The position numbers and the translations under genes were made by a program. Below the pieces are notes generated by a model that saw only the letters and a program-made list of their open reading frames with translations, was not told the DNA's origin and did no database searches. Shown here one piece after another: positions 16,711-26,737 of a stretch of DNA of 32,000 nt (position 1 is the stretch's first letter; each line of letters begins with the position of its first letter). The DNA is from Promethearchaeota archaeon. GTDB taxonomy: Archaea > Asgardarchaeota > Lokiarchaeia > Sigyniarchaeales > SOKP01. The DNA is taken from positions 390,001 to 422,000 of the forward strand of contig JAUWGH010000001.1 in assembly GCA_030606485.1 (NCBI GenBank). The letters are read 5' to 3'.

Positions 16711-18003
16711 TCACTTAAGATTCTCTGTTCTTTTTTTTCCAAAATCTGCATATAAAAATGCCATAGTGAGAGGTAATGCTGCGATACTTACATAATCCCT
16801 TAAAAGGGCATTCACCAGTATGAAAAGATAAAAGAACAAATAAATAAAATAACAAATTGAAATTATTAGATATAAGTGAAATTTATTCTCGCATTTTATT
16901 AACCCTAAAACCAAAGAAATGATAAGGATAATGATTGTAATAATTATACAATTGAATTCACCATAGTTTAGATATTGATTTAAAAAATCCAAAATAAACG
17001 TACCGGGAAAAATCACAGTATCTTTTGCGCGCCATTGTGTCATTTTGCAATTATGAGCAATTGGTGCAACATTAAAAAAAAAATAAATATCCGTTAGTAT
17101 AAAAGGTATCATCCAGATTAAAAATGTTACGATAGTGATTAATGATAAATAAATAGTTTTTTTTAAACCATAGATTTTCAAAATATAAAAGGGGATTATA
17201 AATGCAATTAGCCAAAAATGCATCCTGGAGGCTAATAAAGAACCAAAAAGGAATGCAAAAACAACAATTTTTCTATCGATCTTTTTTGGTTCTTTAGGTA
17301 TAATTGAAAAATATCTTAAAAATTCTTTCTGTTCAGGTACCTCATCAGATATTAAAAATAAAACTAAAAGAAAAACCATTTGTATAGTGATAAGATCACT
17401 ATTCATTGCTGCTTCAAGGAAAAAATAGTCTGAAAATATAATGAATGACAATGTAGGCAATATTAAATAAGCTTTTTCAGTATCTATGAAAGCATATGAT
17501 ATTATAAAACAGAAAAGAGCCATGATCACTATTGACATGAAATATGAATATCCACCTGTAATGATATAAACTGGAAGATATAGGAAATAAGAAAATGGTA
17601 AATTACTTGGAGAGAGTCCATCATGGGTTGTTGTATAATATGGATTTTCTCTATTTAATATTGCTTCAATACAGTTCCTTATTTCCTCATCTCTACCAGA
17701 TAACATCCAATATTCAAATGGTTGTCCTATAAGCCATATTAAAAGAATAGATGTAAATAATAAAATTCCAAAAAATAGAAACCTCCACTTCCATCCAATT
17801 ATAAATAAAAATCCAAATCCAAATATGAGTATAAGGAATAGAAAAACAACTCCAAAAGTATTCCGACTTATAGCCTTATTAGTAGAAAAAGATATTATAA
17901 ATGGTATACAAATTAAAATTAATTCTAATGGAGTAATATCATTAAAAAGAGCTTTAAATTTTTTATTTTCTTTGACATTAGAGAATTTTTCTTTTAAAAT
18001 CAT
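16711..18003 (-). CDS. Polytopic membrane protein, putative GT-C-fold glycosyltransferase
   Basis: About 10-11 hydrophobic segments; first large loop RDEE...NPY...SNLPFSYFLYLP resembles the GT-C/GT87 first loop; glycosylation gene context. Confidence 0.55.
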   Translation of the reverse strand: MILKEKFSNVKENKKFKALFNDITPLELILICIPFIISFSTNKAISRNTFGVVFLFLILIFGFGFLFIIGWKWRFLFFGILLFTSILLIWLIGQPFEYWMLSGRDEEIRNCIEAILNRENPYYTTTHDGLSPSNLPFSYFLYLPVYIITGGYSYFMSIVIMALFCFIISYAFIDTEKAYLILPTLSFIIFSDYFFLEAAMNSDLITIQMVFLLVLFLISDEVPEQKEFLRYFSIIPKEPKKIDRKIVVFAFLFGSLLASRMHFWLIAFIIPFYILKIYGLKKTIYLSLITIVTFLIWMIPFILTDIYFFFNVAPIAHNCKMTQWRAKDTVIFPGTFILDFLNQYLNYGEFNCIIITIIILIISLVLGLIKCENKFHLYLIISICYFIYLFFYLFILVNALLRDYVSIAALPLTMAFLYADFGKKRTENLK

Positions 18004-18031
18004 TATTAGTTTCTCGTTAAATAATTTATAT

Positions 18032-19234
18032 TTAAAGAATCTTATTATTTGTTTTTTCCATCATCTCGGTTTTGGCTTCTGACTCTTGGCTTCTAATTTC
18101 TTTAGTCTTCCTTTTGATGTTCTTTTTCAATTTTTGAAAAAGATTTTTTAATACTTGAAAAATATCAATGTCTTCTTTGCTACTTTTTATTCCAATATAT
18201 ACTAAAAATACTAATACTAAAATAAGGCTCAATTCAATAATTATAGTTATGATTAAATTTAAATAATAATCCCTCGGATAATATGGATTATTTGGATCTG
18301 AATTTAAAACAATGATCTCTTCTCCATCAAGATATCCATCTCCATCCGTATCATTAATCAAAGGATTGGTATTGTTTCCAAATTCATATAAATTAATTAA
18401 TCCATCTTGATCTGGATCCATTGAAGACTCATTTCTTCCTGTTGGGTCAAAACCGTATAAAATTTCCCATGAGTCAGGTAACCCATCATCATCTGTATCA
18501 ATTTTGGAAGGATTAGTATGAGAGATTTCAATTTCATATGTGTCACTCAAACCATCTGAATCACTATCTTTTGAATTTGGAAAAGTTCCTAAAAGAAATT
18601 CATCTAAATTTATAGTTCCATCATTATCCATATCCAAAGTTGCGTCCGTATTATTTAAGGGGTTTAATTTATATGTTATTTCCCAACCATCTTCCATTCC
18701 ATCTCCATCCGAGTCAGCACAATTTGGTAATGTACCATAGATCTTAATTTCATCTTCATCAAGAAGACCGTCCGAATCGGTATCATTATTATTTGGATTC
18801 GTTTCATAAAAAAATTCTTCAAAATTTTTTAAACCATCATCATCATTGTCGTCCATATTGTCAGTCTTATTTATAGGATTCAATCCATAATAAATTTCCC
18901 AGCCATCCCACATTCCATCTTTATCTGAATCTCTATCATTGGGTTTTGTACCATTTAAATATTCGTAATAATTTAATAGAGTATCATCATCAAGATCCTC
19001 AAATTTATCAGATGGATCATTGTATTTCAATCCATAAGTATCTTCCCAATCATCTGGCATTCCATCTCCGTCTGAATCAGTAGCAGAATAAATCTTATTT
19101 AAATCAGTATCAAAATGTTCTACCTTTTTGTTAGAAACACAAAAATAAATTAAAGAAGTGTAATTTAATAGTAAAAATGCTATGAATACGATATAGACTT
19201 TTTTTAAAAATTTATAATTACTAAGGGGTTTCAT
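18032..19234 (-). CDS. Membrane-anchored surface protein with DxDxDG (TSP3-like) Ca-binding repeats
   Basis: N-terminal hydrophobic segment, 10 DxDxDG motifs plus 1 degenerate copy arranged in 49/72/72/~75-aa units, C-terminal TM helix and basic tail. Confidence 0.85.
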   Translation of the reverse strand: MKPLSNYKFLKKVYIVFIAFLLLNYTSLIYFCVSNKKVEHFDTDLNKIYSATDSDGDGMPDDWEDTYGLKYNDPSDKFEDLDDDTLLNYYEYLNGTKPNDRDSDKDGMWDGWEIYYGLNPINKTDNMDDNDDDGLKNFEEFFYETNPNNNDTDSDGLLDEDEIKIYGTLPNCADSDGDGMEDGWEITYKLNPLNNTDATLDMDNDGTINLDEFLLGTFPNSKDSDSDGLSDTYEIEISHTNPSKIDTDDDGLPDSWEILYGFDPTGRNESSMDPDQDGLINLYEFGNNTNPLINDTDGDGYLDGEEIIVLNSDPNNPYYPRDYYLNLIITIIIELSLILVLVFLVYIGIKSSKEDIDIFQVLKNLFQKLKKNIKRKTKEIRSQESEAKTEMMEKTNNKIL

Positions 19235-19555
19235 TCTCTATTCAATTTAATAAAAGATAATATAAAAATTATCTTTAATGTTTTTTTGAATTAATATTTC
19301 AAAATTTATGTTCATCTTGATAGAATAAAACAATAAGCTATTAATTTCTATTGTAATTGGCATTATAAAATTCACAAAAACTATAGAACCTTATTAAAAT
19401 AGTTTAATTAATCAAATGCATGAAATAATGAATTTAATACTAATTTTTCAGAAAGAGTCTATTAAGTAAATTATAATAGGCTAATATAATACAATAATAT
19501 TTTGAGAAAAAGAAATTCATTTTAACATCATTGATACAATTTCATTAAATAATTC

Positions 19556-24973: not shown

Positions 24974-25572
24974 ATGCCTTTTAAGAACGTCACAAGAGGG
25001 TTTGGAGTATTGGAAAAATTTTTATCAATTCAAAGAATGATAATAGCGCAAAAATTAATCAAGAAATACAAAAAAAGTGGAAAAATCCTAGATATTGGAT
25101 GTGGTACTTATCCACTATTTTTGATAAACACAAGTTTTGAGGAAAAATTTGGGATTGATCAAGAGATTAAAAATATGGAAGTAAAATCATTAAAACTTCA
25201 TTTAAAAAAATCTAATCTCCGTTCTGATTTAAAATTTCCATTCAAAGAAAATTATTTTGATGTAATTACTATGTTAGCGTTTATAGAGCATTTAGGAACT
25301 AAACAATTAGAGCGAATTTTAAAAGAAAGTTACTCGTTATTAAAAAAGGATGGAGTTCTTATTATTACAATTCCTGCATCTTGGAGTGATATTCCGCTTA
25401 AAATAATGGTTAACTACATCTAGTGAGTCCTGAAGAGATTCATGAGCATAAAAATCTATATTCTTTGAAAGAATTAAATAATTCACTTATTAAAGCAAAT
25501 TTTAAGCAAACAGATGTTAAAAGTGGTTATTTTGAATTCTATTTGAATTTGTGGTGCTGTGCAAGAAAGTAA
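24974..25572 (+). pseudogene. Class I SAM-dependent methyltransferase interrupted by a 1-nt frameshift (or sequencing error)
   Basis: ILDIGCG, FDVITMLAFIEH. The frame stops at 25423, but another frame continues LHLVSPEEIHEHKNLYS...GYFEFYLNLWCCARK* to 25572. One extra base at 25412-25413 gives 199 aa. Confidence 0.8.
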
Positions 25573-25693
25573 ATCTATATTTTTATATCAAAATTTAAAG
25601 TTTTACGTTTGTTTTTAATGGATTGTTATTTTTTAATATCTATTATTTTAAAAATTTCTATAAATTTATTTATGACTTTTAATTTTAAATCTA

Positions 25694-26737
25694 ATGCAAA
25701 CTAGAATAAGACGCATTCTTTTTGGCATTTCTACTATTATCCTCGTTTTTATAATGGTTATTTTTGTTGATTTTAAAATAATTTTAGATAACCTAACTAA
25801 AATCTCTTTAAATGGTATTTTATTATTTGCTTTAACCTATACAATAGCTTTTTTATTTCGAACTTATAAATTGAAATTAATCTTTCAAGGAATTAATCTA
25901 AATCCACCTTATTTAACATTATATGGGTCTATTGGAGCTGGATGGGCAATAAATGAATTAACTCCTGCAAAAATTGGAGACTTAGCAAAAATTGAATTTA
26001 TTCATGAAATGGAACATGATATTAGTTTAAGTAAGAGTAGTTGCGCAGTTGCTATTGAACGTTTTTTTGATTTAATTATATTATTCTCCATCACATGCTT
26101 TACAATGCTATATTTATATTTAAACAATATAACTGGAACAACGCAATTAAATTTACATTTTTTTATTGGATTAGGTGTTTTAATTTTAGGGGGAGGATTA
26201 GCTGGTTTAGTAATTCTTTTCTTTAAGACTGACTGGATTTTAAATTTAATTGGGAAATTTTCAACAAAACTTAGAAATTACCTAGAAATTTTTCTTGAAA
26301 ATTTTATCGAAGGAATGAAGGTTTTTAAAAAAGATAGAAAGAAAATATTTATGGTTATTATATTAAACATACCTACATGGTTTTTTGAAGCTCTAACGTT
26401 AGTAATATTTTTCTATTTAGCTGGTTATGAAATTAATGTATTTGTCATTATTTTAGCACAACTGGTTACATTTTTTACTAAGACAATTCCTATTACACCA
26501 GGAGGATGGGGCGTATCTGAAATCGCTGGTGCTATAATTATTTCTTTACTTTATCCAATAATTCCATATAATGAAATATTATCAATATTTATTTTAGATC
26601 ACATAATCCGCGTAGCCTATGTCCTTATATATGGAGGAATTTCAACATTTTCATTTAATTTTAAATTCATAGATATTGATCTGCAACGTTTAGATGAAGA
26701 AGAGATAAAATTAGATGAAAAATTACAAAAAAAATAA
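25694..26737 (+). CDS. UPF0104 / lysylphosphatidylglycerol synthase TM-domain (flippase-like) membrane protein
   Basis: ELTPAKIGDLAK, AIERFFD, PITPGGWGVSE; about 8 TM segments. Confidence 0.88.
   Translation: MQTRIRRILFGISTIILVFIMVIFVDFKIILDNLTKISLNGILLFALTYTIAFLFRTYKLKLIFQGINLNPPYLTLYGSIGAGWAINELTPAKIGDLAKIEFIHEMEHDISLSKSSCAVAIERFFDLIILFSITCFTMLYLYLNNITGTTQLNLHFFIGLGVLILGGGLAGLVILFFKTDWILNLIGKFSTKLRNYLEIFLENFIEGMKVFKKDRKKIFMVIILNIPTWFFEALTLVIFFYLAGYEINVFVIILAQLVTFFTKTIPITPGGWGVSEIAGAIIISLLYPIIPYNEILSIFILDHIIRVAYVLIYGGISTFSFNFKFIDIDLQRLDEEEIKLDEKLQKK

Follow-up and report, generated by a model that had tools for sequence, protein, structure and literature searches.

The window analyzed here is a 32,000-nt stretch of DNA (C10:390001–422000) from the 3.75-Mb, 13-contig genome of a Promethearchaeota archaeon (genome G000), which is 100% complete by marker genes. 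On its minus strand, the heptose genes hddA, gmhA and gmhB are followed by genes for a family 2 glycosyltransferase (GT2), a 461-aa membrane protein of the GT-C fold, a small GtrA-type membrane protein, a TSP3-repeat surface protein and a 430-aa membrane protein. The run then goes on with transaldolase (tal), an HldE-like PfkB protein, a split transketolase and a Gmd-like short-chain dehydrogenase/reductase (SDR) (Table 1). The block from the GT2 to the 430-aa protein (16711–22293, 5.9 kb), referred to below as the cassette, is likely to be a three-component module that handles a monosaccharide linked to dolichyl phosphate (Dol-P) or polyprenyl phosphate. We put the probability of this reading, in which the sugar is of hexose type and has no functional tie to heptose, at roughly 60%.

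From the gene identities and folds we infer the following scheme. The GT2 and GtrA would form a split synthase that loads one sugar from a nucleotide sugar onto dolichyl or polyprenyl phosphate at the cytoplasmic face. The loaded lipid would then be flipped across the membrane, and two GT-C enzymes (the 461-aa and 430-aa proteins) would transfer its sugar to surface acceptors outside, the TSP3-repeat protein maybe among them. The cassette was inserted secondarily at the gmhB–tal junction of an operon that is conserved in the family, so that its link to heptose would be positional, not functional. The most likely cargo is a hexose of mannose or glucose type, since the GT2 orthogroup is normally unlinked to heptose genes. 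An initial annotation of this DNA had proposed a lipid-linked heptose transfer system. Its loading and extracytoplasmic transfer steps agree with the sequences, folds and fused orthologs described below; its choice of heptose was drawn solely from gene adjacency, and that adjacency arose by a lineage-specific insertion.

A probable split polyprenyl-phosphate glycosyltransferase

The best relative of the GT2 among solved structures is the dolichyl-phosphate mannose synthase (DPMS) of Pyrococcus furiosus (PfDPMS; PDB 5MLZ, E = 7e-24), followed by ArnC and GtrB. The protein matches PF00535 with 84 bits and contains a DXD motif in the form DAD. Its top NCBIfam match is AglJ (TIGR04182, 87 bits against a cut-off of 325), next comes a Dol-P hexose transferase, and further matches are to ArnC, PgfS and PpgS; all of these, AglJ included, lie below the cut-offs. 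Residues were read from a HMMER alignment to 5MLZ and compared with the residue roles published for PfDPMS (PMC5526996). The GT2 retains the equivalents of PfDPMS residues E12, D39, D89, D91, H94, R117, R131 and S135 (a threonine here). In PfDPMS, Arg117, Arg131 and Ser135 bind the lipid phosphate (PMC5526996). R124 and R138 of the GT2 are invariant across 21 orthologs. The window GT2 is thus predicted to be a polyprenyl-phosphate glycosyltransferase (PPGT).

The GT2 is without a transmembrane (TM) segment, and the gene for a GtrA/DPMS-TM protein is located 1.5 kb downstream. This small protein matches PF04138 over model positions 1–117 with 140.5 bits (cut-off 26.1). Many GT2 orthologs (57–71% identity) carry GtrA fused at the N-terminus, in chains of 393–421 aa (421 aa in G022; ∼395 aa in P0183–P0191). 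Because the orthologs are GtrA–GT2 fusions, the GT2 and GtrA of the window are likely to work as a split enzyme, with GtrA the probable membrane partner. A complex prediction for the two proteins gave a score of 0.00 and no verdict, and is evidence neither way. A quick maximum-likelihood tree places the window GT2 within an Asgard orthogroup (support 100) and next to its sister, the G022 fusion.

A GT-C fold protein and a probable second one

The 461-aa protein has 146 representative homologues. Its AlphaFold2 model, built from a 71-row alignment, has a predicted local distance difference test score (pLDDT) of 88.6 and a predicted template modeling score of 0.88. Comparison of this model with VIA-align gave Z-scores of 24.6 for ALG3, 20.7 for GPI-MT-I and 20.5 for PimE, over ∼350 aligned residues, and of 21 for PIG-U. 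About 38 GT-C chains occupy the range from Z 24.6 down to 12, with chains of oligosaccharyltransferase (OST) type lower in that range (Z 12–14), and unrelated chains come next at 5.5 or below. On the strength of the model, we are confident that this protein is a GT-C fold glycosyltransferase of an unannotated Asgard family. The protein has no Pfam match at E≤0.01; weak matches to PF09594 (GT87) occur in five of the 71 homologues (best E = 1.3e-5); the family profile has no match among PDB sequences, and the Foldseek E-values for the GT-C assignment are marginal (∼1e-3). Since the profile search of the PDB is empty and Foldseek marginal, the fold assignment rests on VIA-align. As a separate observation, the cytoplasmic N-terminus of this protein contains a basic nine-residue motif (KKIxENxYx-like) that is encoded by three tandem 27-nt repeats (21347–21435).

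The 430-aa protein has 17 close homologues and a model of lower quality (pLDDT 69). The top 18 VIA-align matches are all GT-C proteins, with Z from 12.3 (ALG3) to 6.7 and all others below 5; as VIA-align itself remarks, helical bundles may attain a Z of 12.3 by chance. This protein is probably a second GT-C glycosyltransferase. In the first loop, R104-D105 is invariant in the 17 homologues, and D60, in the first outside loop of the 461-aa protein, is almost invariant in 71 homologues. These conserved acidic residues may be catalytic in both proteins.

The gene order given in the initial annotation was recovered in full on the minus strand, and its assignment of GtrA stands. Its description of the first membrane protein as a GT87-like GT-C holds for the fold; the GT87 label is weakly supported by the few PF09594 matches among homologues, and ALG3 (GT58) outscores PimE. 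The second GT-C-like gene that it named probably encodes such an enzyme, given the uniform set of matches above Z 5 and subject to the modest model and the chance range of the scores.

Insertion of the cassette into a conserved operon

Of the 135 genomes of the family, 66 have an ortholog of hddA (62–74% identity), as do 22 of the 36 high-quality ones. We retrieved 53 heptose loci of 8–12 kb each and mapped all window proteins onto them by tblastn. The conserved unit in the relatives is hddA-gmhA-(rpe)-gmhB-tal-pfkB*-tktN-tktC, where pfkB* is the HldE-like PfkB gene and tktN and tktC the two transketolase halves, and in most of them a Gmd-like SDR gene diverges from hddA. Most relatives have a gene for ribulose-phosphate 3-epimerase (rpe) between gmhA and gmhB; in G000, rpe lies on contig C8.

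There is no GT2, GtrA or GT-C gene near the heptose genes in 51 of the 53 related loci. In the 52nd, from G020, an unrelated GT2 of PPGT type (40% identity) is encoded 1.3 kb upstream of hddA, where its neighbors are a DegT aminotransferase and an SDR. The cassette is found in none of the 52 other loci, and neither GtrA nor GT-C occurs in any of them within the 8–12 kb retrieved. In the relatives, tal directly follows gmhB, and it is precisely between these two genes that the 5.86-kb cassette is found in G000.

The junction carries a direct repeat (D5), whose copies at 22343–22406 and 16486–16549 are 72% identical over 64 nt at a spacing of 5857 nt. The local alignment score is 30, compared to 16.4±3.2 in 1000 composition-matched controls, of which 0.3% reach 30. 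The copy at 16486–16549 can be aligned both to the live gmhB of G000 and to the 3′ end of this gene in four relatives. It reads L-D-F-A-stop-N-L-stop, where the live gene reads L-E-F-A-K-N-L-stop. This copy is an insertion scar, and the adjacency of gmhB and the cassette is secondary and lineage-specific, given that the related loci are without the cassette and a decayed copy of the gmhB 3′ end stands upstream of tal. The neighborhood, whose conservation the initial annotation had named as a check on its proposal, shows no conserved linkage of heptose genes with GT2, GtrA and GT-C. In the G018 genome, a 331-aa open reading frame (L042:1245–2240), which has no match in NCBIfam (Pfam was not searched), is located at the same gmhB–tal junction, and this junction may be a recurrent insertion point.

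The junction between gmhB and the GT2 is bridged by contigs of three independent metagenome studies and is thus not an assembly chimera; a single 5.3-kb metagenome contig covers 20457–24799 at ∼99% identity. An AT-rich stretch at 16470–16509, between the 430-aa gene and tal, is unbridged by contigs of four runs, and the junction of these two genes thus rests on the assembly itself.

Orthologous modules in other genomes

Orthologs of the GT2 (≥56% identity) are found in G020, G022, G049 (two copies), G053 and G150, and G009 has a fragment of one at the end of a contig; none was found in the other 26 genomes of the class. The G020 module lies 59 kb from the heptose operon. In G022, the GtrA–GT2 fusion, which is the nearest ortholog of the window GT2, is encoded on a contig other than that of the heptose operon, directly beside a 54% ortholog of the 430-aa protein. 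One G049 copy (contig C6) adjoins an acyltransferase and ABC transporters. On three Promethearchaeota contigs, GtrA and GT2 are found with a ∼460-aa membrane protein by the genes for PheRS, prephenate dehydratase and RNase PH, and on two more the GT2 lies within clusters of GT4 and methyltransferase genes. Across these ∼10 other contexts, no SIS, GHMP or HAD heptose gene occurs within 10 kb of the GT2.

The GT-C proteins also occur apart from heptose genes. Neither hddA nor gmhA is present in the G009 genome (99% complete), which encodes the GT2 fragment along with 15 paralogs of the 461-aa protein. These paralogs, 37–42% identical to the 461-aa protein, form two head-to-tail tandem arrays (C51:86254–99406 and C123:4–8339). 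Orthologs of the 430-aa protein are also present in G012 (96% complete) and G004, both of which are without an hddA ortholog.

The heptose and pentose-phosphate operon

The heptose genes themselves are recognizable at different strengths. HddA has its best match in NF049969 (240 bits, below the 600-bit cut-off) and GmhA matches TIGR00441 with 188 bits (E = 1e-55), below the curated cut-off; GmhB (NF006506, 190 bits, cut-off 178) is the sole pathway protein to exceed its cut-off. As tal and transketolase are single-copy in G000 by tblastn of the genome, the operon also carries housekeeping pentose-phosphate genes. The HldE-like PfkB protein matches TIGR02198 with 159 bits (cut-off 345), and its GAGD motif with the catalytic aspartate is replaced by VAVGS in all eight aligned orthologs. 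These come from eight genera and are otherwise 53–67% identical; because the motif loss is common to such similar proteins, this one is apparently a conserved pseudokinase or a protein repurposed for binding sugar phosphates. The Gmd/LegB-like SDR could be an enzyme that modifies a nucleoside diphosphate (NDP)-heptose.

The route to NDP-heptose is incomplete on present evidence, as judged from profile matches. No nucleoside triphosphate (NTP)-transferase is encoded in the window. The best genome match to HddC (NF049965) scores 118 bits against a cut-off of 300, and no RfaE domain II is above the cut-off in the genome. An NTP-transferase at C10:454739, 33 kb away, was considered as HddC and rejected, as it occurs in eight genomes, mostly without hddA. 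The conserved operon unit contains neither a nucleotidyltransferase nor a glycosyltransferase; the 53 related loci were not searched with the HddC model. It is possible that a promiscuous nucleotidyltransferase encoded elsewhere in the genome acts on heptose-1-phosphate.

In most relatives (L034, L039, L041, L088 and others), a cassette of genes for ATP sulfurylase, an AlkP-superfamily protein and adenosine 5′-phosphosulfate (APS) kinase, located at 7041–10188 of the window, converges on the operon. The AlkP-like protein is always encoded between the two genes for making 3′-phosphoadenosine 5′-phosphosulfate. This neighbor may point to a sulfated, heptose-containing glycan.

The whole region is part of a variable surface-glycan island of ∼65 kb. 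Beyond the window, ∼35 kb of it (C10:422001–456400; L083 and L084) encode four GT2 and four GT4 enzymes, two Wzx/MurJ-like flippases, FkbM-type and other methyltransferases, three large proteins without a Pfam match, and an SDR, NTP-transferase and SDR trio.

Alternative cargo and function

Several findings weigh against a hexose cargo without a tie to heptose. Bona fide DPMSs are marked by DADLQH, with the metal ligand Gln93, and by GFK, with Lys178 contacting O4 and O6 of mannose (PMC5526996). The GT2 orthogroup has DADFSH(H/N)P in place of DADLQH, with Gln93 changed to serine, and the Lys178 position is serine in the window GT2 and glutamate or another residue in its orthologs, after a three-residue insertion around which the alignment is uncertain. 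Because Gln93 is replaced and the Lys178 equivalent is not conserved, the GT2 is by signature not a bona fide DPMS. Dol-P-mannose could be made by a separate protein. A 368-aa GT2 with a C-terminal GtrA/DPMS-TM domain, which is the canonical type III DPMS architecture, is encoded at C4:22891–23955 and is likely to be the housekeeping Dol-P-hexose synthase of the genome. The cassette also has the orientation of the operon, with the GT2 gene beginning 76 nt beyond gmhB, and is preceded by a copy of what was once the spacer in front of tal; co-expression of the cassette with the heptose genes is therefore likely. The hddA operon, which 66 of the 135 family genomes possess, is found in every one of the five others that hold a GT2 ortholog (G020, G022, G049, G053 and G150). 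Nor is a heptosyltransferase known from any of the 66 genomes that carry the heptose operon.

These points bear on the principal alternative, in which the GT2 and GtrA would load heptose from an NDP-heptose, probably GDP-D-glycero-α-D-manno-heptose, to give Dol-P-heptose, and the GT-C enzymes would heptosylate surface proteins or glycans. The insertion would then be a selected coupling, parallel to a Treponema operon described below. We consider this alternative unlikely. GDP-heptose is a C6-extended GDP-mannose, and a GT2 without the lysine that contacts O4 and O6 of mannose might suit such a donor. The position of the cassette inside the operon, on one strand and with short spacers, also favors the alternative. 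The gmhB–GT2 junction is real, and in G020 another PPGT-type GT2 lies close to hddA. The adjacency is nevertheless unique among the 53 related loci and bears an insertion scar, and the orthologous GT2 modules in their ∼10 other contexts are never beside heptose genes. The G009 genome, with its partial GT2 and many GT-C paralogs, does without gmhA and hddA. The co-occurrence of GT2 and hddA is suggestive only, since three of the five genomes are of one genus and completeness confounds the count, which ignores both. A distinct heptose clade of GT2 was considered and rejected, as each of the three GT2s beside heptose genes belongs to a different clade (in a quick tree only).

The supply and use of heptose argue in the same direction. 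No HddC or RfaE domain II is found above the cut-offs, and the distribution of the nearest NTP-transferase does not follow that of hddA. About 60 genomes of the family carry the operon without the GT2, so another heptose route must exist in the family. The initial annotation had noted that the window has no GT9 heptosyltransferase, and this extends to the whole 100%-complete genome, where PF01075 has no matches (a control search matched four of 14 reference genomes). This absence lends the heptose alternative weak support, since the four GT2 and four GT4 enzymes of the island could use NDP-heptose directly.

Scanning one genome per species with the orthogroup motifs gave 80 distant GT2 loci, among them a same-strand operon of a Treponema sp. 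metagenome-assembled genome (L141:10004–15548, contig WQXU01000006.1). It encodes a GT2 (236 aa), a GtrA (139 aa), a 493-aa ArnT/PMT_2-like GT-C, HddA, GmhA and an HddC::GmhB fusion (434 aa); GT4 genes and an ABC exporter flank it. As in the window, genes for GtrA, a GT-C and a DPMS-like GT2 (38% identical) share one strand with heptose genes; unlike in the window, the pathway is complete through the fusion and the genes overlap start to stop. The Treponema GT-C shows no relation to either GT-C family of the window by hhalign, and the two GT2s are in different clades of the quick tree. The tight arrangement gives the Dol-P-heptose alternative a parallel, and as a candidate for a polyprenyl-phosphate-heptose route this operon is far stronger than the window. 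It is the better place to test the idea of a lipid-linked heptose.

Still less probable is an AglJ-like role, in which the GT2 would start an N-glycan by attaching its first hexose to dolichyl phosphate, for the cytoplasmic glycosyltransferases of the island to extend, and the membrane proteins would be polymerase-, ligase- or OST-like GT-Cs acting on the finished glycan. The order of NCBIfam matches (AglJ, then Dol-P hexose transferase), an island rich in cytoplasmic GT2 and GT4 enzymes with two Wzx-like flippases, and the N-x-S/T sequons of the cassette surface protein are in line with it. However, the AglJ score is far below the cut-off, the recurrent pairing or fusion with GtrA and the small GT-C nearby are the signature of three-component monosaccharide systems, and the nearest GT-C structures (ALG3, GPI-MT-I, PimE and ALG6) use Dol-P- or polyprenyl-phosphate-linked monosaccharides, with OST-type chains trailing.

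Comparison with known systems

In Haloferax volcanii, AglD, AglR and AglS add the final mannose of the N-glycan outside the cell from Dol-P-mannose. The resemblance to the cassette lies in the archaeal host and in the order of events, in which a GT2 charges dolichyl phosphate, the product is flipped and a membrane transferase acts outside. The cassette differs in its soluble GT2, which is paired with a GtrA module (fused to it in orthologs), and in its two GT-C genes of unannotated Asgard families.

Bacterial three-component systems include GtrA/GtrB/Gtr*, CsbB/GtcA/YfhO and the pentofuranose systems (PMC8035078, PMC11127046). They likewise encode a GT2 polyprenyl-phosphate glycosyltransferase, a small GtrA-family protein and a GT-C together. 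The cassette is set apart by its archaeal host, a carrier that is presumably dolichol, and two GT-C proteins per synthase. GtrB-type enzymes have TM helices of their own, whereas the window GT2 has none and its orthologs are fused to GtrA at the N-terminus. PfDPMS (5MLZ; PMC5526996) shares with the GT2 the DXD motif and the equivalents of His94, Arg117, Arg131 and Ser135, and its TM domain belongs to the Pfam family of GtrA. It is a single chain with a C-terminal TM domain, whereas the cassette enzyme is split, or in orthologs fused in the reverse order. Yeast ALG3 (GT58), GPI-MT-I (GT50) and mycobacterial PimE (GT87), all GT-C mannosyltransferases that draw on polyprenyl-phosphate-mannose, share the GT-C fold with the 461-aa protein at 7–10% sequence identity.

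The GDP-D-glycero-α-D-manno-heptose pathway (GmhA, HddA, GmhB and HddC) serves the S-layer glycan of Aneurinibacillus thermoaerophilus and the capsule of Campylobacter. The window operon resembles it in having homologues of GmhA, the GHMP-type HddA and the HAD-type GmhB in one operon, with a Gmd-like SDR beside it in relatives. It differs in having no HddC in or near it and in being joined with rpe, tal, transketolase and the HldE-like protein that has lost its motif. Heptose is known in an archaeal N-glycan, that of Thermoplasma. We found no published description of a polyprenyl- or dolichyl-phosphate heptose in the literature, in agreement with the initial annotation, which had called the route one not known to be described.

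Other features of the locus

Homologues of the window proteins are labelled Hodarchaeota or Promethearchaeota. The TSP3-repeat protein matches PF18884 with 84 bits and contains N-x-S/T sequons, and it is possible that it is an acceptor of glycosylation by the cassette. No homologue of it was found beside the orthologous modules examined, and it was rejected as a fixed part of the system on this ground. Upstream of hddA, on the opposite strand, are genes for a methyltransferase and for the UPF0104/LPG_synthase_TM protein that the initial annotation had correctly placed nearby as flippase-like. The UPF0104 gene is absent from the related heptose loci and the contexts of orthologous modules examined, and was also rejected as a fixed part.

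DNA nearly identical to 16000–24800 (at least half of the sampled words) is present in cold-seep, marine-sediment and subsurface metagenomes from at least 10 studies, so the lineage and its arrangement are widespread in such sediments. Metatranscriptomes from these studies contain almost none of the words. A scan for bacterial sigma-70 promoters and terminators gave fewer sites than shuffled sequences; these models are bacterial, and the host is an AT-rich archaeon.

Table 1. Coordinates of the cassette, the surrounding operon and nearby features in the window.
Feature	Position	Strand	Evidence
hddA-like GHMP sugar kinase (D-glycero-D-manno-heptose 7-phosphate kinase type)	23552–24580	-	PF00288/PF08544; NF049969
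gmhA, sedoheptulose-7-phosphate isomerase (SIS domain)	22928–23503	-	PF13580; TIGR00441
gmhB, heptose 1,7-bisphosphate phosphatase (HAD-IIIA)	22369–22950	-	NF006506
gmhB 3′ end and downstream spacer, copy 1 of the junction duplication	22343–22406	-	direct repeat D5
Soluble 243-aa GT2, predicted polyprenyl/dolichyl-phosphate glycosyltransferase type, TTG start	21562–22293	-	PF00535; 5MLZ
461-aa GT-C fold protein, unannotated Asgard family (distantly GT87/GT58/GT50-like)	20058–21443	-	AlphaFold2 model; VIA-align
GtrA/DPMS-TM family small membrane protein	19556–20032	-	PF04138
Ca-binding TSP3-repeat surface protein, N- and C-terminal TM segments	18032–19234	-	PF18884
430-aa membrane protein, probable second GT-C, unannotated Asgard family	16711–18003	-	model; VIA-align
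Decayed gmhB 3′-end relic and ancestral gmhB–tal spacer, copy 2 of the duplication	16486–16549	-	alignment to relatives
Transaldolase/FSA (tal)	15800–16459	-	PF00923, 206 bits
HldE-domain-I-like PfkB-fold protein, probable pseudokinase	14787–15782	-	TIGR02198
Split transketolase (N half 13903–14763, C half 12970–13902)	12970–14763	-	PF00456, PF02779, PF02780
Gmd/LegB-like SDR	11789–12832	-	PF16363, 206 bits; NCBIfam matches
UPF0104/LPG_synthase_TM flippase-like membrane protein	25694–26737	+	PF03706, 113 bits; TIGR00374, 92 bits

Implications

Surface glycosylation in Asgard archaea is almost unexplored, with a single glycoproteomic study that names Hodarchaeales as the next group (PMC11284389). 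The locus illustrates how adjacency in variable glycan islands can mislead, the scar dating the adjacency here as a secondary insertion. The heptose alternative, if true, would bring a lipid-linked sugar donor of a new class. On the preferred reading, as a hexose-type monosaccharide module, the locus would define a split Dol-P-sugar synthase together with two unannotated, Asgard-restricted families of GT-C enzymes. These proteins offer concrete targets for studying how relatives of the eukaryotic ancestor may decorate their surfaces with ALG3-, PIG-M- or PimE-like enzymes.

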